DNA from: a virus
DNA length: 64,000 bases
Reading direction: 5' to 3' (one strand)
IMG/VR virus record: IMGVR_UViG_3300028024_000003
In this document: positions 3,367 through 52,517 of the stretch, one piece after another
Layout of the letters: every line of letters starts with the position of its first letter
Position numbering within the stretch: the first letter of the stretch is position 1
Program-made: the position numbers and the translations under genes
The notes under the pieces: generated by a model
What the model was told of the DNA's origin: nothing
Database searches by the model: none
The model's input: the letters and a program-made list of their open reading frames with translations, nothing else

Positions 3367-3786
3367 CTACTCGGCGAGGTGGTCCGCGTTGTGCAAGCGC
3401 CGATAGACCAGCCGGTTGTAGATACGCCAGTTCTCCCAGGTCACCCGGACCTGTTCCTTGAAGCACGGCACGCCATACTTTTCGGACAGGTAGAGCGCCA
3501 CCGCGGCAGAACGGCTCTGGCCCAGCGAACAGTGCACAACAAGCTCGGTGCAGCCCTGGTGAAGCTCAACAAAATCGAGCACCTCGCGCGCCTGCGCGTC
3601 GCTGAACACTTCGAGCCCCAGCTGTTCCCCGTCCGTATCGTGAAAGCGTTGCACGAGAACGGCCGCCCACCCATCTTGAGCCGTCAGCGGCTCTTCACTG
3701 CGGTCATGGATGGAAATGAGCACCGCGCCTGGCACTGGCCGGTACGCGGCGGCAACTCTGCGCGGCAGAAAACGGATGTGCTGCAT
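3367..3786 (-). CDS. Protein-tyrosine/dual-specificity phosphatase-like protein
   Basis: HCSLGQSRS (CX5R) active-site motif; LISIHD and RFHD motifs. Confidence 0.8.
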   Translation of the reverse strand: MQHIRFLPRRVAAAYRPVPGAVLISIHDRSEEPLTAQDGWAAVLVQRFHDTDGEQLGLEVFSDAQAREVLDFVELHQGCTELVVHCSLGQSRSAAVALYLSEKYGVPCFKEQVRVTWENWRIYNRLVYRRLHNADHLAE

Positions 3787-3797
3787 GATGTTCGGTG

Positions 3798-4130
3798 CTA
3801 GATGAGCTTGATGGTCAACCAGAGGCGGTCACCGGTCACAACGGACGAGTCCCGCAACGTGTCCGCGGCATACCCCTCGTCGCGCAGGTCACCGACAACA
3901 AGATAGGCGCTGATAACCGCTTCGCGGGGGACCGTCCGTTCGGCAACCAGGAAACGGGTCTCGACGCGAAACGACTCACCCGCCTCGAGCCTCGCGAGCT
4001 CCGCCGTCAGGTGGGCGCGCGTCTTTTCGAGAAGGCCCCGGTAGCAGGCTTCATAGTCGACACCCTGCGCTTTTGCGTGAGCCTCGACAAAGCTGCGCCT
4101 GACGGGGAACCTGGACTCCGGCGGGGTCAT
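3798..4130 (-). CDS. Hypothetical protein
   Basis: ATG at 4130 overlaps the upstream stop (ATGA), suggesting translational coupling. Confidence 0.6.
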   Translation of the reverse strand: MTPPESRFPVRRSFVEAHAKAQGVDYEACYRGLLEKTRAHLTAELARLEAGESFRVETRFLVAERTVPREAVISAYLVVGDLRDEGYAADTLRDSSVVTGDRLWLTIKLI

Positions 4131-4564
4131 GCGGATTTGCCCAGAACGGTGGCGGCCTCGCCCGCTATGGCGTTCGACGCGCGTGTCCAGCCTTCTGCAC
4201 TGCCCGCCCACACGTCGCCTGTCTCCAGGTCGACAGCAACCCACTTCTGCGGGCATCGCGTCGTCAAGGTCAGGGCTTGCGCATCGGCATGCTCGCGAAC
4301 CTGACGGCCGCTCTTGAGCGTGCGCGCAGTCGGCACGACCAGGCGCCAGTGCACGTGGCCTGCCTTCACCAGGCGGCCAGCGCGCTGCAGCTGCTGCATG
4401 AATATGTCGGCGAGCGCCGTCGCGTTGCCCATCGCACGCGGGCGGATGTGCGGATACAGCGTCTCGGCGACGTCCTGCCGGCGAAATGGCTTGTCGCCGC
4501 GCTCTTCGAGGAACCGGTCGACAATGCGCTGATGGGCGACGCTTACCTGCCTGGTGTTTGCCAC
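4127..4564 (-). CDS. Hypothetical protein, possible winged-helix N-terminus
   Basis: Operonic ORF; FRRQDVA...LQRAGRLVKAGHVHW resembles wHTH. Confidence 0.6.
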   Translation of the reverse strand: MANTRQVSVAHQRIVDRFLEERGDKPFRRQDVAETLYPHIRPRAMGNATALADIFMQQLQRAGRLVKAGHVHWRLVVPTARTLKSGRQVREHADAQALTLTTRCPQKWVAVDLETGDVWAGSAEGWTRASNAIAGEAATVLGKSA

Positions 4565-4591
4565 GATAATCCCGTACGAATGCGATTCGGT

Positions 4592-5614
4592 TTAGACACT
4601 CTTGAGCAGGTCCGGATTGCTCTTGAGCAGCTTGAGCACTTTCGGGTCGAGTCGCTTGAGCGCGTCGACCGCGGACGCCTGTGCGGTGGCTTCGGCCTTC
4701 TCGCGCAGTGCGACCTTTTCCGCCTCGATGGCCTTGTTGCGTGCCACGAGACCCTTCACCAGGTCGTTGACGATGCGCTGGGCGACTGCGTCCGGCGTAT
4801 CGTCGGGGCCGACCACGACCGGCGTCGCTGCCTGCTTGAGCAAGTTGGCCAGGCTCGGCTGCGATTCCGTGCTCAGAAACGACGTGCCTGCGAGCGCCGC
4901 GATGTCGGGTTGGCGCAGCAGCGCATCTGCGTTCATTACCACCTGGGTCACGAACATGCCTTCAGCCCTCACCACTGGTGCGCGGGTACGCACAGCGGTC
5001 GACGCCTTGCGGCGGCGCGGTGCCGGCCCCGCGCCTGCCATGTAGGTAGGACACAGCTTGAGCAGCGTCGTCTCCAGCTTTTCGCGCCCTTGCTGGCTGC
5101 CGTTCACGCGGGCGAGGCTCGTGTTTTCAATCGTGGCCGCCCCGATGTCCAGCCCGAGATGCATGAGCGGCGACAGCCAGTTCGTGTTTCGCACAGCACT
5201 GGTGAACGCGTGGAGGACGAGCGCGCGCTGGGTCTGGTCGAGTTTCATTTTCTGCGTGCTTTCGCGCGTCACGGCTTCTGCCGCGTTGAGCACATCGCGC
5301 ACGTCAGACGTGCGGGCCTTCTTCGCTGTCGAGTAGATGCGATGCGGCGAATCCGGAGTCAGCAGCGCCTTGACGTTGAGCAACTGCACCATCGAGTCTC
5401 GCAGTGCAGCGTCGAGCTCGGCGATGACCGCCGGCGCGCGAACTCCCTGCTCCGTTTCGCCAGCAAGCACCGCGAGCACGACCTGCTCATCGAGGCCGGA
5501 GCGCAGCTTGGCCAGGCGCTTGCCAAACGGCTTTGAGGAGTTGCCCAAGGGCGTGAGCAGCTTGATAAGCTGGCCGACCCGGATGGCGGTGTCGAGTGTT
5601 TCTTTTTTCATCAT
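4592..5614 (-). CDS. Hypothetical helical protein (340 aa)
   Basis: Long ORF with typical codon usage and RBS, co-oriented with neighbours. Confidence 0.75.
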   Translation of the reverse strand: MMKKETLDTAIRVGQLIKLLTPLGNSSKPFGKRLAKLRSGLDEQVVLAVLAGETEQGVRAPAVIAELDAALRDSMVQLLNVKALLTPDSPHRIYSTAKKARTSDVRDVLNAAEAVTRESTQKMKLDQTQRALVLHAFTSAVRNTNWLSPLMHLGLDIGAATIENTSLARVNGSQQGREKLETTLLKLCPTYMAGAGPAPRRRKASTAVRTRAPVVRAEGMFVTQVVMNADALLRQPDIAALAGTSFLSTESQPSLANLLKQAATPVVVGPDDTPDAVAQRIVNDLVKGLVARNKAIEAEKVALREKAEATAQASAVDALKRLDPKVLKLLKSNPDLLKSV

Positions 5615-5650
5615 TGTTCCTTCGATACATCCGCAGCCGTCGTTGGCCGC

Positions 5651-5875
5651 TTATCGGGCTGCCAGCACCTTGTTGGCGCTGAAGCACCGTTGTCCGTATG
5701 CTGTGACCGCGTACCGGCGGTCTTCCTTGCGCTCCAGCATGCCCGCCGTCGTCATGCGCTCGGCAAGCCTGAACTCACTGGCGACAAACCGGTACCGCGG
5801 GGTCTGCCTGATGACGCTAATAATCGCCCAATAGCTGGGCGGCAAAGGCCGGTCCTGTTGCTTGCTCTGGCGCAT
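5651..5875 (-). CDS. Small hypothetical protein
   Basis: GGAG RBS; fills the gap between nrtR and the 340-aa ORF. Confidence 0.55.
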   Translation of the reverse strand: MRQSKQQDRPLPPSYWAIISVIRQTPRYRFVASEFRLAERMTTAGMLERKEDRRYAVTAYGQRCFSANKVLAAR

Positions 5876-5902
5876 TTCAAATCTCCTACGCAGGCGCGCG
5901 GC

Positions 5903-6577
5903 TCAGTAAAGCTCGCGGGCGAAGTAGGCAATGTCCTGCTTGAGCCGGAAGGCTGACGCGGGTCGACCGCCGCTGAACAGCGTACTGTCCAGCTCATCCA
6001 GCACATTTTCCTTCATGATTTTCGTGCGGAAGTTCGCCGCGTTACACGCCTTCTGGCGAACGGCTTCATAGACCAGCCGCAGGTCGTTCAACGGAAATTC
6101 TTCCGGCAGGAAGTGCGCGACAATCGTCGAATATGCTGCCTTGTTGCGCAGACGCTCGACCGCCATCATGGTGAGCTTCCGGTGGTCCAGCGCCATGTCC
6201 GCGGGCAGGTGCGCACCGTCATCCTCGACGTCAAAGAGTTTCATGCCCCGACTCTCCACCAGCTCCGCCAGAACCTCGGGCGAATTCAGCGCGAGATGCA
6301 CAACGGTGGCCGACCAGCGGCGCGGGTCTCGCGTCGCACCGCCTTCCGTCGCAACCTGCTCGATGTAGCGAGGCTCGAAGTCGAGCTTGGTACGAAGCGT
6401 GCGCAACGCGGCCGCGGTGATGTCGGCATCCTCGTTGGTGTGGATTTGACCGCCCACCAGACACCATTTGCCTGCATCGGGCTCTTTCTCGCGCGGATAC
6501 AGCGCCACCTGAAGGCGGCCGTCAATCATCGTCATCAAGACGATGTCAACAAACAAATCTGGGCGTTCGTATTGCAT
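5903..6577 (-). CDS. nrtR: NrtR-family NUDIX-wHTH regulator of NAD metabolism
   Basis: VDIVLMT...WCLVGG degenerate NUDIX fold; C-terminal ANFRTKI...GGRPASAF wHTH; next to NAD genes. Confidence 0.85.
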   Translation of the reverse strand: MQYERPDLFVDIVLMTMIDGRLQVALYPREKEPDAGKWCLVGGQIHTNEDADITAAALRTLRTKLDFEPRYIEQVATEGGATRDPRRWSATVVHLALNSPEVLAELVESRGMKLFDVEDDGAHLPADMALDHRKLTMMAVERLRNKAAYSTIVAHFLPEEFPLNDLRLVYEAVRQKACNAANFRTKIMKENVLDELDSTLFSGGRPASAFRLKQDIAYFARELY

Positions 6578-6589
6578 GGAAACCTCTCG

Positions 6590-6632
6590 TACACTGTTTC
6601 AACAGTATATCAAACTTCGTCGTAATTTGCAA
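6590..6632 (-). promoter_or_regulatory. Sigma70 promoter of nrtR with overlapping palindrome
   Basis: TTGCAA-17 nt-TATACT; inverted repeat ACTGTT-TC-AACAGT at 6593-6606 overlaps the -10. Confidence 0.7.
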
Positions 6633-6665
6633 TTAACAACTGAGATGGCAAGTGCAGCTCTGCGC

Positions 6666-6692
6666 AAAGAAAACCCCCGCTCAGCGGGGGTT
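6666..6692 (-). terminator. Rho-independent terminator after NAMPT-like gene
   Basis: cccccgc/gcggggg stem plus U-tract on - strand. Confidence 0.8.
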
Positions 6693-6712
6693 CCATTGGT
6701 GCAGCTTGACGG

Positions 6713-8434
6713 TTAGACCGCGAATTCGATGGTGCCCGGTTCCGGGCAAACCCACGACGACAGGAGACGTTCGCGGATGACGGCCCACTTTTCATCGACG
6801 AGCAGCTGGCTGTTGCGGAACACCGGCTTCAGTTCGCCCTGGTCGAACTGTTCGCGCGATTGACGGTCGTAGAGCACGAAGTCATCGCCTTCCTTCTCGA
6901 CGCGCAGCAGACCGACCGCCGACTTCTTGGTGCCATCGTCCGTTGCCGGGTCCTTGTAGATTTCGACAACTTCGTCGCCGACTTCTGCGTATTGCGCCTT
7001 CATCGCCCAGGCGAACGAGTCGCGGGTGATGCACTGGTACGTAAATGAACCGATACCGAACACGACGTTGCCCGATGCGAAACCCTTTGCAGCCAGGCGG
7101 GACAGGATGGCGATGGCGCGGTCCAGCGTAATCGAGTCGCCGTAGATGAGGCCAATGTGCGGGTCGAGCAGCTTGTGGCCCGTGCTCGTAACCGAGCCGC
7201 CGAACGAATCCCACAGGCATGCGACCGAGCCCTTGCGCTCAGCTTCCGTGATGCGCGTGCCGTCCAGCGCCGTGTAGCGGCCGTCGCTGAACATCGGCTG
7301 GCCTTCGGCGTCGCACACCAGTTCCTTGTCGAAGTAACCCGTCAGAATCTTGATGGGGTCACCGCTGTCCGGGCGGGCCACGACCTTCGCGTTGCCCAGC
7401 TCATCCGGCTTGCGGGACATGATGACGTCCTTCAGGCTCGGCAGGATGTCCGTGATGACATTCCAGTAGTCGAAGCTGTCCGCGACGATGCTGATGATGC
7501 CGGACGGCACCAGCTCGGCGATAAGTTCGCGAATGACTTCGAATTCAGCCATCTTGCGCAGTGCCTTCTCGTCCTTGCCAGCGTTGGCCGGGTCGCGGCG
7601 CAGACGTTGCGTGACGAGCAGGATGCGAAGTGTCATGACGCTGTGTTCGGTCGCCGGAACCGAGCCGCCGATGAGTTCTTCGTCCGAGTTCGCGCCGTAG
7701 TAGTCTTCGACGTAGTCGATGGCCGGAATGGTATCCGTACCCCAGAACGAGAGCAGGTGGCCGCTGCCGCTACGCGCCGCGTCGTGCACGCCACTCATGC
7801 CGCGCATCGAGAAGTCGTGACCTTGCCAGTTGACGAAGTCAATAGGCGAACCCGTCAGCTTCGCGAAGTACGTGAGCACCTTGCGGAATTCGAACGCGAT
7901 GGTCGCAACCGTCGACGGCTTCCACATTTCCGTGCTGAAGAGCGTCTCGAAGTAGGTCGACACCCACGCGAATGCATCATTCGTGTTGATAAAGACGACC
8001 GGCGGAACTTTGATATTCACGCGGCTGCCCTCAGGCACCGAGCGGATTTCGAGCGGCAGGTAGCCCAGGTCGTGCAGCTTTTCAACCTGCGTCATGGCGA
8101 CCTTGCCTGCGCCTAGCGCCGAGTCCACGCGACGCTTGAACTTGCGCACCGCCTGCTCCTTCGACATCGCGAAAAAGTCGGCGTTGAACTTGTCAATGAG
8201 AAATTCCTTGATGAAGCCCTTCAGGCCGTGCCACACGACCTTCTTGTCGTAGAACGGCGAGTGGCGCACCGGCGCATACTTGTCGCCGCGCGGCGTGAAC
8301 GTAGCAGCGATGGTCTTCGTTTCCGCCGGATACATGCCCGGATGGCCCGTCTTGTAGAAGTCAGCGAGGTTCATCGGAATCGTGCCGTTCTTGAGGACGG
8401 CGGGGATAGCGGCATTTGCGTACGGTGCGTTCAT
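6713..8434 (-). CDS. nadV: Nicotinamide phosphoribosyltransferase family (NadV, or phage Namat-like)
   Basis: DFYKTGH, HDFSMRG, SVPATEHS, RPDSGDP, LIYGDSIT, FGIGS, KDPATDDGTKKS motifs. Confidence 0.92.
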   Translation of the reverse strand: MNAPYANAAIPAVLKNGTIPMNLADFYKTGHPGMYPAETKTIAATFTPRGDKYAPVRHSPFYDKKVVWHGLKGFIKEFLIDKFNADFFAMSKEQAVRKFKRRVDSALGAGKVAMTQVEKLHDLGYLPLEIRSVPEGSRVNIKVPPVVFINTNDAFAWVSTYFETLFSTEMWKPSTVATIAFEFRKVLTYFAKLTGSPIDFVNWQGHDFSMRGMSGVHDAARSGSGHLLSFWGTDTIPAIDYVEDYYGANSDEELIGGSVPATEHSVMTLRILLVTQRLRRDPANAGKDEKALRKMAEFEVIRELIAELVPSGIISIVADSFDYWNVITDILPSLKDVIMSRKPDELGNAKVVARPDSGDPIKILTGYFDKELVCDAEGQPMFSDGRYTALDGTRITEAERKGSVACLWDSFGGSVTSTGHKLLDPHIGLIYGDSITLDRAIAILSRLAAKGFASGNVVFGIGSFTYQCITRDSFAWAMKAQYAEVGDEVVEIYKDPATDDGTKKSAVGLLRVEKEGDDFVLYDRQSREQFDQGELKPVFRNSQLLVDEKWAVIRERLLSSWVCPEPGTIEFAV

Positions 8435-8474
8435 GGTCTACTCTTCTTGAAGTGGTTATTGGCGGCGTTTGGTG

Positions 8475-8523
8475 TTAGTCGCGATTTACGACAAAGTATA
8501 GCACTAAATCGCGCGATGACCAA
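8475..8523 (-). promoter_or_regulatory. Promoter of NAMPT-like gene with shared 15-bp motif
   Basis: TTGGTC-17 nt-TATACT followed by GTAAATCGCGACTAA (8475-8489, - strand). Confidence 0.6.
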
Positions 8524-8531
8524 GCGTTTTC

Positions 8532-9410
8532 TTAAGCAGCGGTGTCGGTGGCCTCGCTAAGCTCGAAAACACCCAGTTCAGCGGCCAGTTCTGCGTTGCG
8601 CACGTTCGCCGAGAACACGCCAGCGTAGGCGGCCTTGAGCGGCTCCAGGCCTTTCGTGAACAGGCCGTGCGTGACATAGAGGTACAGCGGCTGGTCCGTC
8701 TTTTCGCGCAGCACGCGGGCCAGTTCGATGAAGGTGCCGCCGCCGTCGCAGATGTCGTCGACCACGAGCAGCGGCTTCGCTGGCACATCGCCCTGCACTT
8801 GGGCGCCCGAGAGCTTGCCCGTCACCGGGTCGCGCTTCTTGTCGGCAAACACCACTTCCGTGCCGAACATCTTGGCGAGCGCCGAGACGCGCTTGCGGGC
8901 GCCTGCGTCGGGCGCGACGAACGCGCATTCGCGCAGCAGGCTTGCCCCGCCCTTCATGCCGAACGCAGCAAACATCAGGTCGCGCGTCGGACGGATGCGC
9001 ACATTCTTGATGAGCGCGGGCGTAACGTCGCTGTGCGGGTCCCAGATTTCGACCTGGTCGAAGGCCAGGGCATTGATGAGGTTGCAGAAGACCGCAATCG
9101 AGAGCGGCTCGCCGTCCACGGCAACACGGTCCTGGCGGGCGTACGGCACGTAGGGCATCACGAGCTTCAGGATGCTGCCTGCGGGAATCACCCGGCGCAG
9201 TGCGTCCGTGACGAGCATCAGGTCCATGATGTCAGCAGGTGTGTAGACGCGCGCTTCAATGCTCCAGAAAGACACCGGGCCTGCGAGCAGTATGTCGTCG
9301 ACCGGCAGACGTGCGTGGCGCTCGCCACCCGGGAACGACATGAACTGGATGTCGGGGAAGCTGGTCATGTCGCCTTCGGCGGTGAACGAGTGCAGTGCAA
9401 TGTGGTTCAT
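8532..9410 (-). CDS. prs: Ribose-phosphate pyrophosphokinase family (Prs, or phage Adps-like)
   Basis: FPGGE, MPYVPYARQDR, DPHS, VAPDAGA, VVDDICDGGGTF, LYVTHG motifs; likely ATG at 9410. Confidence 0.9.
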   Translation of the reverse strand: MNHIALHSFTAEGDMTSFPDIQFMSFPGGERHARLPVDDILLAGPVSFWSIEARVYTPADIMDLMLVTDALRRVIPAGSILKLVMPYVPYARQDRVAVDGEPLSIAVFCNLINALAFDQVEIWDPHSDVTPALIKNVRIRPTRDLMFAAFGMKGGASLLRECAFVAPDAGARKRVSALAKMFGTEVVFADKKRDPVTGKLSGAQVQGDVPAKPLLVVDDICDGGGTFIELARVLREKTDQPLYLYVTHGLFTKGLEPLKAAYAGVFSANVRNAELAAELGVFELSEATDTAA

Positions 9411-9585
9411 GGTGATGGTTTTTGTTGGTTGATTGTTAATCGTTAATCGCATTTTACATCTAAGTATAGTCGCAGGTCAAGGGGATGATGCGAACACTTT
9501 CGCCGGGTGCCCTGGGCTCGCGCCTGGCGAAACCTATACTGCGTGAGTACCCTGTAAAATTCGTGGACAAAACTGGAGAATTTCA

Positions 9586-9852
9586 ATGGCTGTGGTCATC
9601 TATAGCAAAGAAGACGGCGTGTATCTGGGTTCCTTTCTTGGGCTGGGCTTCTGGACGAACCTCGACACGGCCGGTCAGTCCTCGGCGGTAACCTTCCCTT
9701 CCGAGCAGGCCGCCCGCGACTATATGGCGACCTGGGATACGCCTCCGCCGGCCGATGTGCAGGTGGTGGACGTTGTGCCTGATGACGGCCCGAACGGCGC
9801 GTCGGTAGCCGCCTGTGTTAAAGCGGGCCTTCCGGCCTGGGTAGCTAACTGA
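9586..9852 (+). CDS. Hypothetical protein
   Basis: GGAG RBS, CTATACT upstream, terminator downstream. Confidence 0.65.
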   Translation: MAVVIYSKEDGVYLGSFLGLGFWTNLDTAGQSSAVTFPSEQAARDYMATWDTPPPADVQVVDVVPDDGPNGASVAACVKAGLPAWVAN

Positions 9853-9872
9853 GCAGGCCTTGCATCATCCCT

Positions 9873-9937
9873 CAAGCCGCAGATTCGTCTGCGGCTTTTT
9901 TCATGGACGAAAAAAAGCCCGGCACTATGGCCGGGCT
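9873..9937. terminator. Pair of convergent terminators
   Basis: agccgcagattcgtctgcggct-T6 on + strand; A6-gcccggcactatggccgggct on - strand. Confidence 0.75.
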
Positions 9938-9995
9938 CAAAATAGCCAGAGGGACGCCCTGGCTGCCGATAGAGGGGTGTTGAGAGAGCCGCCGC

Positions 9996-11294
9996 TTAAC
10001 GGCAGACGTGCAGGTGAGCCGGTGCGTTGTCGGCGTTCAGCTGCGCCTTGAAGTCCATCACCAGCGCCAATTCCGGCTTGGCGAGGCTTTCCATGAGCGA
10101 CCAGCCGCCGTCAGCCACGAAGTCAGCATGCGGAACGGCGAGAATCACCGCGTCGGCCGGATTCGCCTGTGCATCTTCCAGCGAAACCATCGTGAGGCCC
10201 AGCTCGTGCTCGACTTCTGCCTGGTCAGCCAGCGGGTCGACGACTTGCACCTTCACGCCGTACTTGCCGAGCTCTTCGCAGATGTCAGCGACCTTCGAAT
10301 TGCGCACGTCCGGCACATTCTCCTTGAACGTCGCGCCGAGAACGGTCACGACCGTATCGCGGTTCACGCCAACCGTCTTGACCATCTTCTTCACCAGCTG
10401 GTCGACGATGAAGGCCGGCATCGAGTCGTTCGTGGCACGCGAGGCCATGATGAGCTTGGCGTTGAAGCCTTCTGCTGCGGCCTTGTGGCTCAGGTAGTAC
10501 GGGTCCACCGAAATGCAGTGACCGCCGACCAGACCCGGCTGGAACTTCAGGAAGTTCCATTTGGTGCCCGCCGCTTCCAGCACGTCGTGCGTGTCGACGC
10601 CGCAGTGCGTGAAAACCTGATAGACCTCGTTCATCAGCGCGATGTTGACGTCACGCTGCACGTTTTCGAGGACTTTCGCGCTTTCCGCGACCTTGATGGC
10701 GGGAGCACGGTGGATGTTCGTAATCGAACCGTACAGGGCCGCCAGGGTTTCGAGCACTTCAGGCCGGTCGCCTGAGACAATCTTGGTCGTGTTCGTCAGG
10801 CGGTGCACCTGGTCACCCGGGTTGATACGTTCCGGCGAGTAGCCGATGGCAAACTCTTCCGGATAGCTGTAGCCCGAAACCTTTTGCAGCACGGGCAGGC
10901 ATTCTTCTTCCGTCGCGCCGGGATAGACCGTGCTTTCGTAGACGACGATGGCGCCCTTCTTCATCACCTGGGCCACCGTACGGGTAGCGGCCAGCACGCA
11001 GCCCATGTCGGGCACGTTTGCTTCGCTTACCGGCGTCGGCACGGTCACGATGAAAATGTCAGCTTCGCGCAGGTTCTCGACGTCCGCCGTCAGCATCAGG
11101 CGCTTGTCGGCGAGCAGGCCGCTTAGCTCGTCGCTCTCCATTTCACGCGTGCGGTCGAAGCCCTGGCTCAGTTCGGTGACGCGCTCGACGTTGATGTCGA
11201 AACCGATAACGTTATTGTGCTTGGCCAGCTCCAGCGCGAGCGGTGCGCCGACATAACCGAGGCCGATGATTGCGATTTGCGAAGTCTTATTCAT
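9996..11294 (-). CDS. UDP-glucose/UDP-HexNAc 6-dehydrogenase (TviB/WbpO-like)
   Basis: GLGYVG Rossmann motif, VPTP, YESTVYPG, SPERINPG, AKVLEN, GGHCI catalytic Cys, LGATFKENV. Confidence 0.92.
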   Translation of the reverse strand: MNKTSQIAIIGLGYVGAPLALELAKHNNVIGFDINVERVTELSQGFDRTREMESDELSGLLADKRLMLTADVENLREADIFIVTVPTPVSEANVPDMGCVLAATRTVAQVMKKGAIVVYESTVYPGATEEECLPVLQKVSGYSYPEEFAIGYSPERINPGDQVHRLTNTTKIVSGDRPEVLETLAALYGSITNIHRAPAIKVAESAKVLENVQRDVNIALMNEVYQVFTHCGVDTHDVLEAAGTKWNFLKFQPGLVGGHCISVDPYYLSHKAAAEGFNAKLIMASRATNDSMPAFIVDQLVKKMVKTVGVNRDTVVTVLGATFKENVPDVRNSKVADICEELGKYGVKVQVVDPLADQAEVEHELGLTMVSLEDAQANPADAVILAVPHADFVADGGWSLMESLAKPELALVMDFKAQLNADNAPAHLHVCR

Positions 11295-11510
11295 TTTCAA
11301 ACGTCCCGTATTAATTTGACCAGTTCAGACTGGCATTAGCGTGGTTAACAGCACTGCTACCGGCAAGTAGAACTATCTCAGTGCATGGTTCCCATTATAG
11401 CACAGAATGCAGTCAACGGGAACGAAAAGATGCCCTAATTACTATGGTATATCATTAATTGCGATTTACATCTTTTGCTTGGCTGCCAGCCTTTGCCGAC
11501 CGGCATAGCC

Positions 11511-12584
11511 TCAGTTGCGAGGGTCTGCGTTACGTGCAATCCAGCTGCGCAGGTAGTCCAGTCGAGCTTCCGAACCCGTGATTTGAGCCTGGGTGCCCAT
11601 CTGTTCGAGCGTCGCCTGGCGCATCGCGCGCTGTGCGTCGTCGGACTGGATGCCCTTCAACCGCTCGACCGTGTTGTCGGCCAGTGCCTTGCGTTCGTAG
11701 AGGCCTTGCAGAATGCCTTCTTCGGCCGTAATCAGGCCATGCGCCGTTTCCTTGGCGCGCAGAAACTGCTGCACCGGGCCATCGCGTTGCTCGCTCTGGT
11801 ACTTCTCGGCCAGTCCGCCAACCGACTTGGCTGCGCGATTCGCCGCGCCAGCCCCGAAGCTGTAGCTGACCGTCAGGCCGATGAAGGGCTTGGTAGCGCC
11901 GCCTGAGCGCGGGTCCGTCTGTGCGCCGGCCGCAATAGATACGTCCCATGCCGATTGCGCCGCCAGCTCGCTCGTTTCGCTTGCTACGGCCGCGTGCGCC
12001 GCGATGGCTTCGTGCACCAGACCGCCCAGCGGAACGTCCGCCTCGGGGAGTTGGTTGGCGATACGGGCGCGAGCTTGTTGCAGCGCCGTAAGTAGACTGC
12101 GCACCACGTCGCGCGCGTCGTAGGCTGCCTTCACGTCGGAGAGCGACGAAGTATGGACGCCCAGCATCGCTTCTTCCTTTTTCACGTTCGCATTGGCAAT
12201 GTCGAGCGCCTGACGCAGCACCGGCTCCATTGCTTCGAAGGCGTGCAGGTTGCCGCGCTGTTCGACGTTCTGAGCCTGCTCTGCGAGCTTGCGGTCGGCG
12301 CGATAGGCGTCGCACGTAGCATCCGCCAGTTCGCCCGTCGTGCGGGCTTGCAGCTGCTTCGACAGGGACTTGCTGAAGCCTACCGTGATGGTGCTGCTGT
12401 TACCCGTTGCCGGGTTACCAGTCGTGGCGAACATCTGCGCCGAACCGAGCAGTTGCTTCTGCACTTCAGCCTGAGCCTGCGTCAGCTGGCAGAACGAGTC
12501 GGATTCATCGGCAAAACTGGAGGTCGAGATGGCCGCGAGTGCCACGGCGACGGCGAGCGTCTTGTACTTGGGATGCATGTTCAC
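11511..12584 (-). CDS. Secreted protein, probable TolC/outer-membrane-factor-like
   Basis: Sec signal peptide ending SSFA; long amphipathic helices with two beta-strand segments (ITVGFSKSL; WDVSIAAG...FIGLTVSYSF); fold assignment is inference. Confidence 0.55.
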   Translation of the reverse strand: MNMHPKYKTLAVAVALAAISTSSFADESDSFCQLTQAQAEVQKQLLGSAQMFATTGNPATGNSSTITVGFSKSLSKQLQARTTGELADATCDAYRADRKLAEQAQNVEQRGNLHAFEAMEPVLRQALDIANANVKKEEAMLGVHTSSLSDVKAAYDARDVVRSLLTALQQARARIANQLPEADVPLGGLVHEAIAAHAAVASETSELAAQSAWDVSIAAGAQTDPRSGGATKPFIGLTVSYSFGAGAANRAAKSVGGLAEKYQSEQRDGPVQQFLRAKETAHGLITAEEGILQGLYERKALADNTVERLKGIQSDDAQRAMRQATLEQMGTQAQITGSEARLDYLRSWIARNADPRN

Positions 12585-12759
12585 TACCTCTATCGGCTTT
12601 TAATGTTATATACGAATAACAACTAATGCAGTCATTATATCAAAAAACAGCTACCGGAGCAATGTGTGTTTGATGTTTTGTGATATACGCCTGAGGAACC
12701 GCCAGGCAAGACTGGAGAAACAAACGGCCGGAGCATTGCGCCCCGGCCGGGTTGGAACA

Positions 12760-13872
12760 TCAGAGGATGTAGAAGGGGCTGTGGCCGACGAACAGAACCT
12801 GGTCCTTGGCTGCCTTGTTGTCGTCGAGGTCCAGTTCGACCAGGACGCCGCGCAGTTGCGTGCTGAACAGCGGATGCTGAGCGTGTTCTTCGTCCTTGGT
12901 AATCGACTTCACCCGACCGACCTTGAAGCACAGCACGATTTCAGCCTTGCACGAGTACACCGGAGCGCCGACGTGCGCAGAATCTTCGTTGTCGTACGGC
13001 ACGAAAGCGAAACGACGCGTGTCCTTGTCGCCATACGCGGCCATGTAGTACGGGCTTGCCTTGAGGCCGTTGAGCATCGTTTCGAGTTCCGCGGCTTCCT
13101 TGGCCTTGACGCTTACATCGGCATTCAGTTGCACCAGCTTGAGGTTGGTTTCGCTCAGGCTCTGCTTGAGCATGCTGACCTGCGCCAGGCTTTGCATCGC
13201 TTCCGGCGAGCTATTGCCGCCACCGAGCGACGCCACGCCACGCGTCAGCTGCGAAATCTGGTTGTCAATCGTCGCTGCCGCCACCTTGCTGTCCGCGAGA
13301 GCCGATTCAGCCGTCACCAGCCCTGCCCGTGCCTGCGTCGCCGACACGTTCGTCATGAGGCCTGCCTTGAGCGCCTGGTCGATGTTGGCCGACACCTGAC
13401 GGTTCGCTGCCACGACCTGCGCTGCTCTTGCATTGATAGCCTTGCGCTCGGCAACCAGCTTTTGCAACTGACCGTTGAAGGCTGCGTTGGCGTCCTTCTC
13501 GTCGCCCAGCGAGTGCTCGTAGCGGCCGATGATGCCCGTGAGCCAGTCACGTTGCGTTTGCAGCAGGTTACGCGCCTGTTCTGCGCTGTCGAGCTCGCCC
13601 TTCATCTGGTCATAGTTCTGCTTGGCCGTAAACACCTGGGCGGCAAGCTGCGCAACGTGCGGGTCCGACTTGCTCAGGATGACCGGCGCGACCCAGCTCG
13701 AATTGAGCACGAACGTCAGCATGGTAATGCCGTAACCCGACGCGCACAGCAGGATTGCTGTCAGCAGGAAAACGGCCAGGTAGCGGTAGCTCTTCAGCAG
13801 GGCGCCCTGGTATTTCGACATCTGGAAGCGGGCGAAGAAGTTGCCGCTCGTTGCATTTGCGGGAGTGCTCAT
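12760..13872 (-). CDS. Membrane-fusion/periplasmic adaptor-like protein
   Basis: One N-terminal TM helix, long coiled coil, beta-rich C-terminus (FAFVPY...VGAPVY...GVLVELDL). Confidence 0.65.
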   Translation of the reverse strand: MSTPANATSGNFFARFQMSKYQGALLKSYRYLAVFLLTAILLCASGYGITMLTFVLNSSWVAPVILSKSDPHVAQLAAQVFTAKQNYDQMKGELDSAEQARNLLQTQRDWLTGIIGRYEHSLGDEKDANAAFNGQLQKLVAERKAINARAAQVVAANRQVSANIDQALKAGLMTNVSATQARAGLVTAESALADSKVAAATIDNQISQLTRGVASLGGGNSSPEAMQSLAQVSMLKQSLSETNLKLVQLNADVSVKAKEAAELETMLNGLKASPYYMAAYGDKDTRRFAFVPYDNEDSAHVGAPVYSCKAEIVLCFKVGRVKSITKDEEHAQHPLFSTQLRGVLVELDLDDNKAAKDQVLFVGHSPFYIL

Positions 13873-13987
13873 GGATTTTCTCGGCTAATAAGTGTTATGG
13901 CTAAACAGGTGAATCTCTAACTGATGATTAGCATTATAGCACAGAATGTATGTTAAGTGCAAATAACGACTAAGTTAAGTTGCAGTT

Positions 13988-15250
13988 TTAGTTCGCGGGA
14001 GTCGCATCCTGCGGTTGCTCGGCGGTGGCAACCTTTTCTCGCGTACCCCACGCGTCCTGGTCGAACGAGAACAGCGCCATGAAGTGCAGCATCAGCGAAA
14101 TGAGGCCCCATGCCTGGAACAGTCCCACGAGCAGCACCGAGTTGATTTTCTTCGAGCCCGGCATCAGACGCGGGGCATAGATGTTGTAGGCCATCGCCGC
14201 GATAATCGAGCTCAGTGCGCCGTACACCACGCCGTAGCAGGCACCCTTCCAGAACACACCCGGGCCGTAGACTTTCACGCAACTCAGCGCGAAGAAAGTC
14301 ACGAGAATGGCGAGCAGATACGGCATCAGCCAGGTCAGCGTGCGATTCACGCCGACGATGCGGAAGTTCTTGCGCAGCGTAACGAGTGTCCAGACCGCAT
14401 CACGCAGCGCCGAGCGCGACCAGCGAAGCTGCTGCTTGAACAGCACGTCGAACTTGTTGGGAACCGACGTCCAGCAGATAGCGTGTGGGTTGATGAGGGT
14501 ACGCCAGCCGCGCAGCATGACCGTGTGCGTCATGTAGCGGTCCTCGCCCGCGCGAACCTTCACGCCCAGGAAGTTCAGATTCTTGATGTCGTCCTCGATG
14601 TCGCGGTAGACCGACGCGCGGATGGAGAACAGGCAACCGCTGATGCAGCTGACGCCACCTTGGAGAATCTGCGTGAGCTTGCCCAGCTGGAAGCTGCGGA
14701 AGTACGTAATGGCCTGCGCCATCGTGTAGACGTTGTCGTTCACGTTGGTAATGCCGACCGAGCCGCCGACCGCGCCGACACGCGAGTCTCCGCCGAAGCA
14801 CGCCACGAGTTCCTTGATGACGTCCTTGTGAAAGATGCAGTCGCTGTCGATGACGATGAAAATCTCGCCCGTCGCGTGTTTTGAGGCGTTCAGCACGGTC
14901 AGGTGCTTGCCCGAGTTCACCGGGTTGCGGCCGACCCGCACGAGGCCCGGATTCGCGTCAGCAATCTGCTGCACGTACATCATCGAGTCGTCCTTGCTGA
15001 AGTCGTCGTAAGCGATGATTTCCAGCTTGTCGCGCGGCCAGTCCGCATTGATGATGCTGTTCAGCGTGTTCAGGATGTTTTCGCCCTCGTTGTAGACGGG
15101 CACGAGAACGCTGACCTTGGGCTGGTAGGTGTAATCGCGTCGCGGCTCCGCGGCCTTCGTGAGCAGACGCAACAGGAAGTTGACCGCCGTGCAGATGATG
15201 AGCAGCACCGGCAGCAGTTCGAAGATTTCCAGCATGACGTGGAAAAACAT
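13988..15250 (-). CDS. Processive GT2 synthase, NodC/hyaluronan-synthase-like
   Basis: VLVPVYNE, DDFSKD, GK, IDSD, CISG, GEDRYMT, QQLRWSR (QxxRW); N-terminal TM and about three C-terminal TMs. Confidence 0.9.
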   Translation of the reverse strand: MFFHVMLEIFELLPVLLIICTAVNFLLRLLTKAAEPRRDYTYQPKVSVLVPVYNEGENILNTLNSIINADWPRDKLEIIAYDDFSKDDSMMYVQQIADANPGLVRVGRNPVNSGKHLTVLNASKHATGEIFIVIDSDCIFHKDVIKELVACFGGDSRVGAVGGSVGITNVNDNVYTMAQAITYFRSFQLGKLTQILQGGVSCISGCLFSIRASVYRDIEDDIKNLNFLGVKVRAGEDRYMTHTVMLRGWRTLINPHAICWTSVPNKFDVLFKQQLRWSRSALRDAVWTLVTLRKNFRIVGVNRTLTWLMPYLLAILVTFFALSCVKVYGPGVFWKGACYGVVYGALSSIIAAMAYNIYAPRLMPGSKKINSVLLVGLFQAWGLISLMLHFMALFSFDQDAWGTREKVATAEQPQDATPAN

Positions 15251-15486
15251 GGCATTTCCTCAGAGGCAGAGATTGACTAACTAACTGCCATTATACCACG
15301 TTATGCGTAAATTACAACTAACACTAAAGCGGATTTGTTAACTATTTGCAGGGCTTTTCAACGCGGCCCGCTGACTCAAGACGCGACAAGCAAGCCTCCC
15401 GTCTCCTTCCCTGGCTGCCAGGTCTCGGGGCACACTTGCGCACGGCTCTTTTCTCGCTATACTGCTTATTGTCGAATCCGAGCAAA

Positions 15487-15687
15487 ATGAGCAATCTGGA
15501 ATACCCCGAATCCTCCGCATCGTCGGCCGACTGGCGCGCTTGGCTGGAGGAACTGCAAGACTTGCGGCAAACCGCAGAAGTTAAATCCGCCATCCGGCAG
15601 GCCGAGCAGGTGCTGAAGTCCCGGCGAAGCACGGACAAACGAGCCGCGCGAAAGCATCGCGACTGTTATGAGCTGGATGCAGCCTGA
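15487..15687 (+). CDS. Small helical hypothetical protein
   Basis: ATG 15487 downstream of TTGCGC...TATACT promoter. Confidence 0.55.
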   Translation: MSNLEYPESSASSADWRAWLEELQDLRQTAEVKSAIRQAEQVLKSRRSTDKRAARKHRDCYELDAA

Positions 15688-15728
15688 AACCCGCGTCGCC
15701 TTGCTGGACGCATGAACTCTCAACCCGC

Positions 15729-15959
15729 ATGAACAACCGGTCCGCCCACAAGTTCACCGACATCTCGAGTGAAGAGTTTCGCGAGTACACGTTTCCCACA
15801 GGTCTGAAGGTCCGCATCGACGCGCCGACCGACCTCGCTGTCAGCGCGAGTGGTGGCCATCGCATCCTCGATGCGGCCGGCATGAGCCACTATGTGCCAC
15901 CGCAATGGGTCCATCTGACGTGGAAGGCGAAGCCGGGTCAACCGAACTTCGTAGCCTGA
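15729..15959 (+). CDS. Small hypothetical protein
   Basis: Compact beta-rich ORF DISSEEFREY...GGHR...SHYVP..W. Confidence 0.7.
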   Translation: MNNRSAHKFTDISSEEFREYTFPTGLKVRIDAPTDLAVSASGGHRILDAAGMSHYVPPQWVHLTWKAKPGQPNFVA

Positions 15960-27612: not shown

Positions 27613-28362
27613 ATGCACCCTAGTATTTACCGAGAATTCCACGTCGGCCTGGCTCCGGACGTCGAAACTAAAGAGATTGCCCAAGGCGTCTCACACGAAG
27701 AAGCCGTGCTTTTCGTCATGCTACGCCACGTCAAAACGGGCGAAGAAGCCGTGTTCAAGCTGCTCGGTGCGGCGGGCACGCCCGAGCGCTGGATTGAAGA
27801 GCAGGTCATGCGACGCTTCCCGGCGTCGGAGGCCGCGGGCGAGTTGCGTCAGCTCTACGGCCGCAACCGCCACCGCCTCAAGGAAGGCTGGGAGCATGCT
27901 TTCGGTGAGCGGGTCTACCAGAACCTGAAGCAGGCCGGTTACTCCAAAGGCGCGCAATACTGGGCGGAGCTCATCCCGACCCTGCCGTCCGTTCTCTACC
28001 GGACGATGAACAACCGCGCGGTGACCAACCTGGGCGAGCTGGGTGATGACGCCGAGTTCAGGGACATCATCAAGGCGGTCCATGACGGCTGGCTGGCGGT
28101 CCTCAAGGAAGCACGCGCCATCGGCATGACGATAAACGGGATGCAGCGTCTGGCGCTGGACCTTGCCGGCTGGCCGACCGACCACCTGCGTGGCCTGTCA
28201 ATGCTGGAGTACGCGCAGTTCAAAGAAAAAGCGCTCTTTGGCCGTCTGTCGCTCGGCTATCTATCTGAGGAAGACTGGTCAGCCGCGCTCCTGCCTCTGG
28301 TGGAAGATGCGACGCCCTCGAGCGACACACGCCCCGCCACAACGATTGCCGAACTGAAATGA
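27613..28362 (+). CDS. Hypothetical protein
   Basis: ATG 27613, divergent from the recombinase; stop overlaps the NUDIX start. Confidence 0.7.
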   Translation: MHPSIYREFHVGLAPDVETKEIAQGVSHEEAVLFVMLRHVKTGEEAVFKLLGAAGTPERWIEEQVMRRFPASEAAGELRQLYGRNRHRLKEGWEHAFGERVYQNLKQAGYSKGAQYWAELIPTLPSVLYRTMNNRAVTNLGELGDDAEFRDIIKAVHDGWLAVLKEARAIGMTINGMQRLALDLAGWPTDHLRGLSMLEYAQFKEKALFGRLSLGYLSEEDWSAALLPLVEDATPSSDTRPATTIAELK

Positions 28363-28961
28363 GCCACAGCCTGAATGCAGTAACGCGCGCGGCGCGAGAA
28401 GTCCTCTCGGCCTACCTCGAGCTGTATCCCGGGGAGGCACAGCGGTTCGACCTGCTTCGCGCCCAGCTCGAGCAGGGCAACCCATCCGTGCTCGTACGCT
28501 CGAACATGACAGGTCACATCACGACCAGCATGGTGGTTTTCGACCCGGCCACACGCAAGGTTCTGGTCATCTTCCATGGCATCTATCGGGACTGGATGCC
28601 GTCGGGTGGCCACTTCGAGATGGACCTCTCACTCTGGCTGTCGGCCGCACGCGAGGTGCTTGAGGAAACTGGCGTCGTCGTCGCGGAGCTGGCGTGGTCC
28701 GGACGCGACAGCGCGTATCTGCCCATCGACATCGACACGCACCCGATTCCGGAGAATCCGAAAAAAGGCGAAGGCGCGCACTTCCACCACGATTTCACGT
28801 TCGTCGCGACTGCATCGTCGCACGTGCCGCTCGTACCTCAGATGGAAGAAGTCGATGCCGCAGTCTGGGTCGACCTGGCGGAGATGCACAAGAGCCAGCT
28901 TGAGCGCGTGCGCCGGCTGGCGGCCAAGCTGGAAAAGGCGTTCCCGGCGTCGCGCCTCTGA
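28359..28961 (+). CDS. NUDIX hydrolase
   Basis: GHITTS; Nudix box GGHFE...AAREVLEETG; HFHHDF. Confidence 0.88.
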   Translation: MSHSLNAVTRAAREVLSAYLELYPGEAQRFDLLRAQLEQGNPSVLVRSNMTGHITTSMVVFDPATRKVLVIFHGIYRDWMPSGGHFEMDLSLWLSAAREVLEETGVVVAELAWSGRDSAYLPIDIDTHPIPENPKKGEGAHFHHDFTFVATASSHVPLVPQMEEVDAAVWVDLAEMHKSQLERVRRLAAKLEKAFPASRL

Positions 28962-36296: not shown

Positions 36297-36842
36297 TTAT
36301 GCCGCTTGCTTGATGAGGAACCGCGTACGGTCTTCCGCGTCGCGAATCCAGACGGGAGCCATGCCGCGACCTGTCCACGTTACGCCACTTTCCGGGTCGC
36401 GATATTTCGGCGCGACCGTTACTTTTTTGCGCGCTTTACCGCTCGATGCGCCAGTCGGAACGACTTTCAGGTGGCGCTTCGTTGCCGGCGCGGCGGCCGC
36501 TTCGTCCTGGTTGATGAGAAACTTCGAGCGGTCCTTGACGTCCTTAATCCATGCCGGTGGTCGGGCGTGGCCGCTCCAAGTTTCGCCCGTCTTGGGGTTC
36601 ATATACTTCGCGGGCAATTTGCCTTTGGCTGTGGTGGCCACCGAAGCCTTCTTGGCCTTTACTGCCTTTGTGACTTTCGATGTGCGCGCGGTGGGGTTGC
36701 CAATGTCTTCCAGCGTCAGCTCATTCTTCAACATCAGGTCGTGAATCTTTGCGATGACCGATTGCATAGATTTCTTGCGCAAAGAATCAGCTTGGACCTG
36801 CAGCTTTTGAATGCGTGCCTGGATGGCTTCCAAAGTCGCCAT
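36297..36842 (-). CDS. H-NS-family protein with two DNA-binding domains
   Basis: N-terminal coiled coil; KYMNPKTGETWSGHARPPAW and KYRDPESGVTWTGRGMAPVW. Confidence 0.88.
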   Translation of the reverse strand: MATLEAIQARIQKLQVQADSLRKKSMQSVIAKIHDLMLKNELTLEDIGNPTARTSKVTKAVKAKKASVATTAKGKLPAKYMNPKTGETWSGHARPPAWIKDVKDRSKFLINQDEAAAAPATKRHLKVVPTGASSGKARKKVTVAPKYRDPESGVTWTGRGMAPVWIRDAEDRTRFLIKQAA

Positions 36843-41639: not shown

Positions 41640-41836
41640 GATGTATGTTTCCTCTATAAATTAACAGCGAAATTGCTGCAAATCAGTATAGAGGCGGATG
41701 TTGACAGACTGCGCTTTAAAAGGTATGTGTTACTCAAAACACCTACCGGATGCGGCGCGTTATTGAGGCAAACTTGCGTTTATGCGTGTTTTATAGTATA
41801 GTCCAAAACATCCATCGAACGCTACAAGGACTTCGC

Positions 41837-45062: not shown

Positions 45063-45696
45063 GCCGAGGGCGGCCGCGGTGACCGGCCCGTTTCCCCAAA
45101 ACAGCCTGCTGCTTCTGCACCTCGCGCTTCAGTGGTGGCAGACGCAAGGGCTCCAGTACGTCGACCTGCCGTGGATGGTGCCCTCGCGCTATGTCGATGC
45201 GCACCGGCCATCGTTCTGCCGCGACGTGCCTACGCTGCATGGTTCGTTTGTTGGCTCCGGCGAACAGAGCTTCCTGATGCTGCGCGAACAGGGGCTTCTC
45301 GCTTGCGGCGCGCCGGGTTATATCGGCTGGACGCCCTGCCTGCGTGATGAGGCCGTGCTCGATGAGACGCACCAGCACGGCTTCATGAAGGCTGAATGGT
45401 ACGTGCCTCTCTCGCGCGCGGATGTCTCCAGCTGGCGCGAACGCCTCGACGAAATGCTCGCTGCGCAGGAAATGATGTTCCGGACTGTTGCGCTTTATGC
45501 AGAAGGTCCTATTGGGCTTCGTATCGACCGCGAAGAGGCCGGTGCGGCACAGCACGACCTGGTGGTCGGCGGCCTGGAAATCGGCTCCTACGGCCTGCGT
45601 CACTTCGAAGGGCAATCGTATCTCTACGGTACTGCGTTGGCGCTGCCTAGATTCGCGCAGGCGCTCGAGCGCGTGCCACCTGCAAAACGAGATTGA
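45040..45696 (+). CDS. Stand-alone class II aminoacyl-tRNA-synthetase-like catalytic core; start may be GTG 45079
   Basis: Motif 2-like TPCLRDE, GFMKAE, LEIGSYG, motif 3-like GTALALPRF; no anticodon-binding domain. Confidence 0.65.
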   Translation: MASVLRGEPRAAAVTGPFPQNSLLLLHLALQWWQTQGLQYVDLPWMVPSRYVDAHRPSFCRDVPTLHGSFVGSGEQSFLMLREQGLLACGAPGYIGWTPCLRDEAVLDETHQHGFMKAEWYVPLSRADVSSWRERLDEMLAAQEMMFRTVALYAEGPIGLRIDREEAGAAQHDLVVGGLEIGSYGLRHFEGQSYLYGTALALPRFAQALERVPPAKRD

Positions 45697-52292: not shown

Positions 52293-52480
52293 TGTCTGAT
52301 TCTCAGGTTGCCTTGCAGATGGATTTGACCTACCTACCCGTATAAGCACACCGCCCGAGGTAGCCCAACTAGGCCGCCCAATGTGATGTTTAAATGATAT
52401 ACTAATACCGTTTATTGTATATTTTGCCAATCTGGCCCGCGAGTGTACCGGTCGGCGGTGCCGGACTGCATCAAATTTCC

Positions 52481-52487
52481 CTATACG
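52481..52487 (+). promoter_or_regulatory. CTATACG element
   Basis: 30 nt upstream of ATG 52518. Confidence 0.6.
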
Positions 52488-52517
52488 CCTCCAGGACACA
52501 TCACATCTGGAGAAAGT

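Follow-up and report, generated by a model that had tools for sequence, protein, structure and literature searches.

The 64,000-nucleotide stretch of DNA analysed here (the window) comes from IMG/VR virus record IMGVR_UViG_3300028024_000003 and is part of a 333,603-bp soil-metagenome contig. It carries three genes arranged head to tail on the minus strand (Table 1), encoding a protein of the phosphoribosyl pyrophosphate (PRPP) synthetase family (Prs-like), a protein of the nicotinamide phosphoribosyltransferase family (NAMPT-like) and the regulator NrtR. This trio is probably a bacterial-type, NrtR-controlled module of NARP1, the pathway by which the enzymes Adps and Namat regenerate NAD+ with ADP-ribose and nicotinamide as starting materials. 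Its carrier would be a large element of mobile type, at least 333 kb long, from a Burkholderiales-like soil host. Clade membership and signature residues make it likely that the pair uses ADP-ribose chemistry. The first-pass annotation, made from the letters alone, had raised the question of Adps and Namat versus ordinary Prs and NadV, had held that sequence alone could not separate them, and had proposed phylogeny and profile comparison as checks. Clades and signature residues do separate the two kinds of enzyme, and the window pair is Adps/Namat-like by both. The combination of NrtR and NARP1 is the ordinary bacterial form of the pathway and not a novelty of the element. The unusual features of this case are its carrier, the layout of one promoter and one operator per gene and, most of all, the extension of the operator to a polysaccharide locus of four genes.

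The Prs-like and NAMPT-like enzymes

The Prs-like protein matches the Pfam families Pribosyltran_N, Pribosyltran and Pribosyl_synth, shares 40–44% identity with the 'prs' genes of large phages and, against solved PRPS structures, scores no more than 68 bits. A tree of 96 rows separates the canonical, housekeeping Prs proteins at 99% support (Shimodaira–Hasegawa-like approximate likelihood ratio test, SH-aLRT), and the window protein falls within the 91-row Adps clade. This clade also contains the Adps of ICP1 and the Felixounavirus pair, which we take to belong to the genus of the verified Bas63. Pyrophosphorylation of ADP-ribose has been demonstrated biochemically for ICP1 Adps (PMC13586617), and residues are given here by alignment to the ICP1 gene in the numbering of that study. 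The window protein retains the catalytic residues and those shared with PRPS (F18, R87, H121, D161, K185, D212, D213 and D216) together with I214, C215, G217 and F221, which set the Adps clade apart from Prs in the alignment; the donor loop reads DDICDG..F in the Adps clade, including the window, versus DDM(I/V)DTA.T(L/I) in Prs. The C-terminal alpha11–alpha12 module of PRPS is absent, only 46 residues following the THG motif versus 63–77 in canonical Prs. A Namat homologue is immediately adjacent in 97% of the Adps clade (Osterman 2024), and the window gene likewise adjoins a Namat-like gene.

The Prs-like protein scores 119 bits on TIGR01251, similar to the 110–153 bits of the Namat-adjacent Prs paralogues of five trio-bearing genomes, each of which has a separate main Prs at 347–408 bits; yet 119 bits still lies above the TIGR01251 cut-off of 113. 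The protein is below every equivalog cut-off in the profile search. As judged by score, by equivalog cut-offs and by the missing C-terminal module, the enzyme is not a housekeeping PRPP synthetase.

In the PDB search the NAMPT-like protein (PF04095; 511 bits on NF006629) reaches 440 bits with 9w5w/9w5x, the solved structures of phage Namat, and 373 bits with 9ke8, versus about 150 bits with animal and Xanthomonas-type NAMPT. Among 50,697 phage records its matches are bimodal, with Namat-type proteins that have a prs-like neighbour at 37–49% identity and the NAMPT-type proteins of NARP2-like phages at 25–31%. A tree rooted on four NAMPT-type phage enzymes separates these at 100% and places the window protein deep in the Namat clade, above ICP1 and a Felixounavirus enzyme. 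The clamp motif of Namat has been described as GS[FY]T[YF][QN]..TRD (PMC12774641); the window protein has GSFTYQCITRD, with F at position 3, Y at 5 and C at 7. The form GS[FY]x[YF]....[TS]RD is found in nearly all of the 80 bacterial loci described below and in all but one of 82 phage Namat-like sequences, and the four NAMPT-type enzymes have GGGLLQ.VNRD or a further diverged sequence. In the clamp loop, GDKY of the window pairs with TSRV of SpbetaL1 after the TPR motif, with boundaries taken from the pairwise alignment alone; by the criterion used, a third residue R, K or Y stacks, and otherwise the fourth does.

Structure 9ke8 was considered as the Bas63 Namat and rejected, as its motifs are identical to those of the pNAD1 NadV of Haemophilus ducreyi, whose clamp reads GAQTYQRNTRD. 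For the clamp rule, the pNAD1 enzyme can serve well as a negative control.

Several features weigh against ADP-ribose chemistry. In the window protein A and E replace F92 and F223 of Adps, respectively, and donor-loop positions A218-A219-S220 read GGT (GRT in the Felixounavirus enzyme). Clamp position 7, one of the two adenine-stacking aromatics in Namat, is Cys; its relatives have Y, F, H, M, V or G. The pNAD1 NadV, which presumably works as a NAMPT, lies at the base of the Namat clade without an Adps partner, and Namat itself retains PRPP activity in vitro (PMC12774641). The pair could then serve ordinary nicotinamide salvage, a NARP2-like route and the reading of 2008, in which the Prs paralogue makes PRPP, the NadV-like enzyme nicotinamide mononucleotide (NMN) and the product of an NMNAT-like gene NAD+. 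The clamp cysteine, the PRPP activity, the place of pNAD1 NadV within the same broad clade and the TIGR01251 score would all suit such a route, and so would the NMNAT-like gene elsewhere in the window, which could complete it; its product is 32% identical to the cytidyltransferase encoded beside the NAMPT-type gene of Stenotrophomonas phage Yut3. That gene, however, lies 36 kb away and lacks the operator. The Adps-specific donor loop and the lost C-terminal module point elsewhere, NAMPT-type enzymes form a separate clade, and both window proteins sit deep in clades bracketed by enzymes with demonstrated ADP-ribose chemistry, so that ordinary salvage appears quite unlikely.

NrtR and the candidate operator

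The first-pass annotation had described co-oriented prs-like, nadV-like and nrtR genes, each with its own promoter-like sequence, and the coordinates and a promoter scan agree with this. The ATG at 9410 is the likely start of the Prs-like gene, as also called on a public contig of identical sequence and as indicated by the alignment of homologue N-termini, and 98 nt separate this gene from the start of the NAMPT-like gene downstream. A consensus scan of positions 5500–15800 returned four sigma-70-like sites. Each lies on the minus strand immediately before a gene, the genes being the three of the trio and that of a glycosyltransferase family 2 (GT2) synthase. A GC-rich hairpin with a T-run stands between the NAMPT-like gene and the nrtR promoter. 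No Rfam family was matched in the window, and a NAD riboswitch is therefore not indicated.

The window NrtR consists of an N-terminal NUDIX domain (PF00293) and a C-terminal winged helix (PF21906, NrtR_WHD). Its best solved match is the NrtR of Shewanella oneidensis (3gz5; E 6e-27, nearly full length), and it scores 132 bits on the NCBIfam equivalog NF050029, under the 400-bit cut-off. The Nudix box, read from the translation, is GGQIHTNE...LRTLRTK where GX5EX7REUXEEXGU would be expected, and the glutamates of REUXEE are absent. Relief of DNA binding by ADP-ribose has been demonstrated for the Shewanella and Synechocystis proteins, and in an electrophoretic mobility shift assay ADP-ribose frees Shewanella NrtR from prs-nadV operator DNA (PMC2330246); release by ADP-ribose, as claimed earlier for NrtR repressors, is thus established for the closest solved relative.

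All three promoters of the trio are overlapped by a 16-bp near-palindrome with the consensus GTWAWTYGCRAWTWAC, which is the operator candidate. With a position weight matrix (PWM) made from five sites, the 64 kb yields eight matches scoring 17.9 bits or more, every one of them inside 6622–15322. A PWM made from the three NAD-gene sites only (the NAD-only PWM) finds five further sites of at least 14 bits, all before polysaccharide genes and none elsewhere in the 64 kb; the expectation from shuffled sequence at this threshold is 0.48 sites per window. Outside the element, the same motif precedes each of the three genes of a Massilia trio and the prs gene of a Thiobacillus trio, and it is found in the nrtR/prs intergenic regions of Duganella, Trinickia, Zoogloea, Chromobacterium, Paraburkholderia and Achromobacter. 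Across 59 proteobacterial trios, 27 of 45 motif matches fall in the 7% of DNA that lies upstream of the three genes; the corresponding figure for NrtR-less phage loci is 10 of 91 matches in 5.4% of DNA. Mainly because the motif recurs upstream of nrtR and prs in other trios, the palindrome is plausibly the binding site of NrtR, and the earlier claim that the trio has its own regulator gains a plausible candidate operator at each of the three promoters.

This assignment has points against it as well. A match of at least 13 bits is present in only 20 of the 59 proteobacterial trios, and the palindrome is a 16-bp GT-N12-AC sequence versus the 21-bp motif with a GT-N7-AC core of most NrtR groups. 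A length and spacing so unlike the published motifs might indicate that a different regulator binds here, or that the sequence is a promoter module common to a temporal class of element genes, and the polysaccharide promoters have further flanking sequence in common, as in one repeat family. The motif, however, stands beside nrtR or prs in unrelated chromosomal contexts (Massilia, Thiobacillus, Duganella, Trinickia, Zoogloea and Chromobacterium), is absent from the NrtR-less phage NARP1 loci closest to the window, is palindromic and overlaps core promoter elements, all of which make a site foreign to NrtR very unlikely.

Distribution and origin of the trio

NrtR accompanies the bacterial, and not the phage, copies of NARP1 in this data set. 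In 80 IMG/VR loci with a Namat relative, searched for NrtR within 6 kb, an Adps-like gene adjoins Namat on its upstream side in 76 and NrtR is found in none. In 80 loci with a close Namat relative from species-representative bacterial genomes, an Adps-like gene lies next to Namat in 74 and the full trio with NrtR is present in 68. Trio-bearing genera include Chromobacterium, Achromobacter, Paraburkholderia, Trinickia, Duganella, Undibacterium and several Bacteroidota. The trio is thus a common chromosomal prs-nadV-nrtR module of Betaproteobacteria and Bacteroidota, known since 2008. The closest trios are those of a Massilia metagenome-assembled genome (MAG), with the same gene order and 67%, 70% and 59% identity, and of a Thiobacillus MAG. 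Their flanks hold chromosomal housekeeping genes (MnmA, GlnRS, DnaK, a pilus ATPase and cytochrome oxidase), and beyond the trio these loci have nothing in common with the window. For these two reasons the cassette was most likely captured from a betaproteobacterial chromosome, and an invention of the trio by a mobile element is not borne out.

NrtR-like genes are present in 15 of the 50,697 phage records, and no relatives of the window NrtR were found in IMG/VR. The uncultured huge phage LR756504.1 (636 kb) has an NrtR-like gene about 3 kb from a NAMPT-type gene, at about 285.5–290.2 kb; this adds another giant element with NrtR, there alongside a NAMPT-type enzyme. In CAKLQF020000015.1 and CAKLQH020000024.1 ('Acinetobacter phage MD-2021a') an Acinetobacter-type Namat-like gene is followed directly by NrtR, and these records may represent bacterial DNA deposited under a phage name. 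Apart from the soil run of origin, metagenomes of rhizosphere or roots (nine runs, from different studies) contain 21–33% of the sampled 31-mers of the trio (5903–9452); close relatives of the trio are therefore widespread around plant roots.

The polysaccharide locus and the orphan genes

Four adjacent minus-strand polysaccharide genes lie upstream of the trio, each preceded by a copy of the operator and by its own TATAAT promoter. Such neighbours are absent from the bacterial trios that were checked. The same operator before both sets of genes suggests that the four would be switched on together with the NAD genes. On the other side, five tightly packed orphan genes follow nrtR; no terminator-like site was found among nrtR and these genes, which may share the nrtR transcript. 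They have no match in Pfam, PHROG or a language-model atlas, save a weak DSPc phosphatase match of the last (E 0.0017). A Macro-domain phosphatase of the NARP1-AP kind was sought near the trio, and none of the window open reading frames (ORFs) scanned against Pfam had a Macro-domain match; the weak DSPc match was the sole phosphatase-like one in this search.

Table 1. Positions of the trio, its candidate regulatory sites and other features of the window.
Feature	Position	Strand	Remarks
Adps-like (Prs-family) gene	8532–9410	-	292 aa; ORF open up to 9452
Namat-like (NAMPT-family) gene	6713–8434	-	573 aa
nrtR	5903–6577	-	224 aa; degenerate Nudix domain, then winged-helix DNA-binding domain
Candidate NrtR operator, Adps-like gene	9442–9457		5 nt past CTATACT -10; PWM 22.3 bits
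Candidate NrtR operator, Namat-like gene	8474–8489		5 nt past -10; PWM 21.6 bits
Candidate NrtR operator, nrtR (autoregulation)	6622–6637		covers -35 of nrtR promoter; PWM 24.6 bits
Same motif before UDP-sugar dehydrogenase gene	11454–11469		21.2 bits, NAD-only PWM
Same motif, TolC-like gene	12605–12620		13 nt past TATAAT; 16.2 bits, NAD-only PWM
Same motif, 370-aa gene	13952–13967		covers promoter -35 region; 19.3 bits, NAD-only PWM
Two overlapping motifs within GT2 synthase promoter	15300–15322		14.0 + 19.6 bits, NAD-only PWM
Sigma-70-like promoter, Prs-like gene	9480–9451	-	consensus scan
Sigma-70-like promoter, NAMPT-like gene	8522–8495	-	consensus scan
Sigma-70-like promoter, nrtR	6632–6604	-	consensus scan
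Sigma-70-like promoter, GT2 gene	15317–15290	-	consensus scan
Terminator-like GC-rich hairpin and T-run after Namat-like gene	6660–6704	-	inverted repeat
UDP-sugar dehydrogenase gene	9996–11300	-	profile searches
TolC-like gene	11511–12584	-	profile searches
370-aa gene, function unknown	12760–13872	-	behind operator copy
NodC/PgaC-like GT2 synthase gene	13988–15250	-	profile searches
Five tightly packed orphan genes after nrtR	3367–5875	-	74, 340, 145, 110, 139 aa
Stand-alone NUDIX protein	28359–28961		
H-NS-like gene	36297–36842		
AAA ATPase gene	41750–42934		phrog_2376, 4e-87
NMNAT-like cytidylyltransferase gene	45693–46298	+	PF01467; outside operator set
236-aa ORF	52443–53153		weak, sub-threshold ADP-ribosyltransferase-like Pfam match

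The giant element

The gene content of the element was read over about 95 kb of the 333 kb, comprising the window and its flanks (L182, L183 and L217). Phage-like content of the window includes the AAA ATPase, whose jumbo-phage homologues are 37–48% identical, a NinI-like phosphatase, a class II ribonucleotide reductase (NrdJ), ERCC4, RuvB and LigA. Just left of the window lie a PurZ-like adenylosuccinate synthetase gene, MazG-like and dNMP-kinase-like genes and members of the families Phage_phiTE_072 and Phage_P22_Y8K6. Content of plasmid or chromid type comprises H-NS-like and HU-like proteins, a two-component system and envelope and polysaccharide genes. Neither capsid, portal and terminase genes nor rep, par and conjugation genes were found in the approximately 95 kb, and no tRNA genes were found. 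A pattern search turned up no IMG/VR relative of a 736-aa PAPS-reductase-like protein, and no plasmid relative was found for a 587-aa orphan. At the nucleotide level, megablast (20 kb queried against phages, 5 kb against plasmids) yielded nothing beyond short matches or matches to single genes.

The element was initially labelled non-phage-looking and plasmid-like, a label that is not established, with many genes of jumbo-phage type standing beside those of plasmid type. The content is mixed and somewhat more jumbo-phage-like than plasmid-like, and we would put a jumbo phage or phage-derived element at an even chance. A megaplasmid, slightly short of even in our estimate, is favoured by the 12 of 65 window proteins that match the conjugative 582-kb Burkholderia megaplasmid pM7012, itself a trio carrier, by the H-NS-like, HU-like, two-component, TolC-like and polysaccharide genes, and by a region of at least 14 kb that is syntenic with a 643-kb contig from a cultured Burkholderia ubonensis. 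Against it stand the lack of rep, par and conjugation genes in the region read, the strong phage-family matches (phrog_2376, NinI-like phosphatase, NrdJ, PurZ-like, Phage_phiTE_072 and Phage_P22_Y8K6) and a TerD-like marker without a close match in 72,556 plasmids.

The PurZ-like gene (phrog_1211, 3.6e-58) is accompanied by the MazG-like and dNMP-kinase-like genes and by a gene for a 757-aa TerD-like protein (L182 15428–16660, L217 1294–14363). This block, which may be a pathway for a modified base of the 2-aminoadenine type, is syntenic with the 643-kb B. ubonensis contig, the amino-acid identity being about 78%. Three IMG/VR contigs (L033, L060 and L070) also encode an AAA ATPase of phrog_2376 a few kb or less from NARP1, at 27–29% identity.

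The hexamer CTATAC occurs 30 times in the window versus 5.2 expected from shuffles, and 16 copies lie 15–120 nt upstream of same-strand genes, including the Adps-like and Namat-like genes. It suggests a promoter type used across the element and, since it precedes these two genes, the cassette would use the element's own promoter type.

Proposed mechanism and role

The mechanism proposed for the trio takes the enzyme chemistry from relatives (SpbetaL1, Bas63, ICP1 and Paenibacillus foliorum) and the release of NrtR by ADP-ribose from Shewanella and Synechocystis. When free ADP-ribose is scarce, NrtR dimers would sit on the palindrome over the -35 element, the spacer or the start site and keep the Adps-like gene, the Namat-like gene and nrtR low. 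Once NAD+ is cleaved to ADP-ribose and nicotinamide, ADP-ribose would bind the dead Nudix domain and NrtR would leave the DNA. The Adps-like enzyme would then transfer pyrophosphate from ATP to ADP-ribose to form ADPR-PP, the Namat-like enzyme would join ADPR-PP with nicotinamide to give NAD+, and the fall in ADP-ribose would restore repression. Adps and Namat have been reported not to form a stable complex.

The 2008 description of NrtR regulons left a puzzle, namely why a second prs gene should be co-regulated with nadV by an ADP-ribose sensor. The present comparisons support the view that this second prs is Adps in a whole class of bacterial loci; because the paralogue would be Adps, ADP-ribose would be both the inducer and the substrate.

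As to the purpose of the module, we infer only tentatively, at somewhat less than an even chance, an inducible counter-defence against host NADases. The same chemistry could equally be plain housekeeping recycling of NAD, inherited from the betaproteobacterial chromosomal ancestor and without any part in a conflict between element and defence, and this too we hold possible at a little under even. The recycling role draws on the nearest relatives standing amid MnmA, GlnRS, DnaK and cytochrome oxidase genes, on the trio in 68 of 80 bacterial loci, and on the NAD users of the element itself, LigA and perhaps the 236-aa ORF with its weak, sub-threshold ADP-ribosyltransferase-like match. Chromosomal NARP1 homologues are also thought to be housekeeping (PMC11370490), and surveys find NARP1 enriched in the non-mobile chromosome, with housekeeping or regulatory roles suggested (PMC11370490; Osterman 2024 discussion). 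On the other hand, the Adps-like and Namat-like genes appear to be driven by the element's own dispersed CTATAC-type promoter and would therefore be integrated into its programme, and phage NARP1 and a bacterial NARP1 neutralize NADase defences when expressed (PMC12774641).

A wider reading, which we regard as rather doubtful, is an alarm regulon in which ADP-ribose released by NADases, such as those of abortive-infection defences, would derepress NAD+ rebuilding, the synthesis and export of a surface polysaccharide (GT2 synthase, TolC-like protein and UDP-sugar dehydrogenase) and possibly the five orphan genes. If true, metabolic rescue would be linked with an altered cell surface, and NrtR-regulated prs-nadV operons would be substrate-induced NARP1 pathways. 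Returning to the NrtR-controlled NARP1 module, a giant mobile-type element appears to have acquired the cassette and placed it under its own type of promoter. If the regulation is real, it would provide a ready-made ADP-ribose-responsive switch, and a test case for mobile elements that use host-type inducible rebuilding of NAD against NAD-depleting immunity.

Comparison with known systems

The closest known systems are the NrtR-regulated prs-nadV clusters described by Rodionov et al. 2008, who left open the role of the second prs paralogue and gave the gene orders '#prs-nadV-nrtR' in Acinetobacter and 'nrtR-#prs-nadV' in Shewanella, Chromobacterium and Cytophaga (PMC2330246). The same three families are present in the window, in the Acinetobacter order; in both cases a divergent second prs paralogue lies beside nadV and a palindromic operator precedes prs, and the window NrtR is closest to the Shewanella protein that ADP-ribose frees from DNA. 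The window differs in having a promoter and an operator for each gene, a layout shared with the Massilia relative, in the operator copies before four polysaccharide genes, and in its replicon, which is a giant mobile-type element and not a chromosome. On the megaplasmid pM7012 of Burkholderia sp. M701, Adps-like, Namat-like (68% identical) and NrtR-like genes likewise stand amid orphans, but nrtR is divergent, no PWM match of at least 13 bits is present and no polysaccharide locus adjoins. No explicit link between NrtR and NARP1 was found in the literature searched, the coverage of which was incomplete.

NARP2, the NadV-NMNAT pathway of the KVP40 type, shares with the window an enzyme of the NAMPT family, and an NMNAT-like gene is present elsewhere on the element. 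The NAMPT-type enzymes of NARP2, however, form the separate clade described above, lack the GS-aromatic clamp and have no Prs-like partner; the window enzyme lies outside that clade, and its distant NMNAT-like gene does not make a NARP2 pair. The Adps-Namat pair of Paenibacillus foliorum rebuilds NAD+ and neutralizes SPARSA (PMC12774641), and non-phage copies can therefore carry NARP1 chemistry. That pair is close to SpbetaL1 (54% and 72% identity) and has no reported NrtR, whereas the window pair belongs to a different, proteobacterial branch. With phage NARP1 itself (Osterman et al. 2024; SpbetaL1, Bas63, Fado and ICP1) the window shares the Adps and Namat clades, the order of Adps followed by Namat, the donor-loop signature and C-terminal truncation of Adps and, largely, the clamp motif of Namat. 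It differs in the Cys at clamp position 7, in a Namat nearer to chromosomal betaproteobacterial proteins (57–70% identity) than to those of GenBank phages (at most 49%), and in the presence of NrtR, which the phage loci lack.

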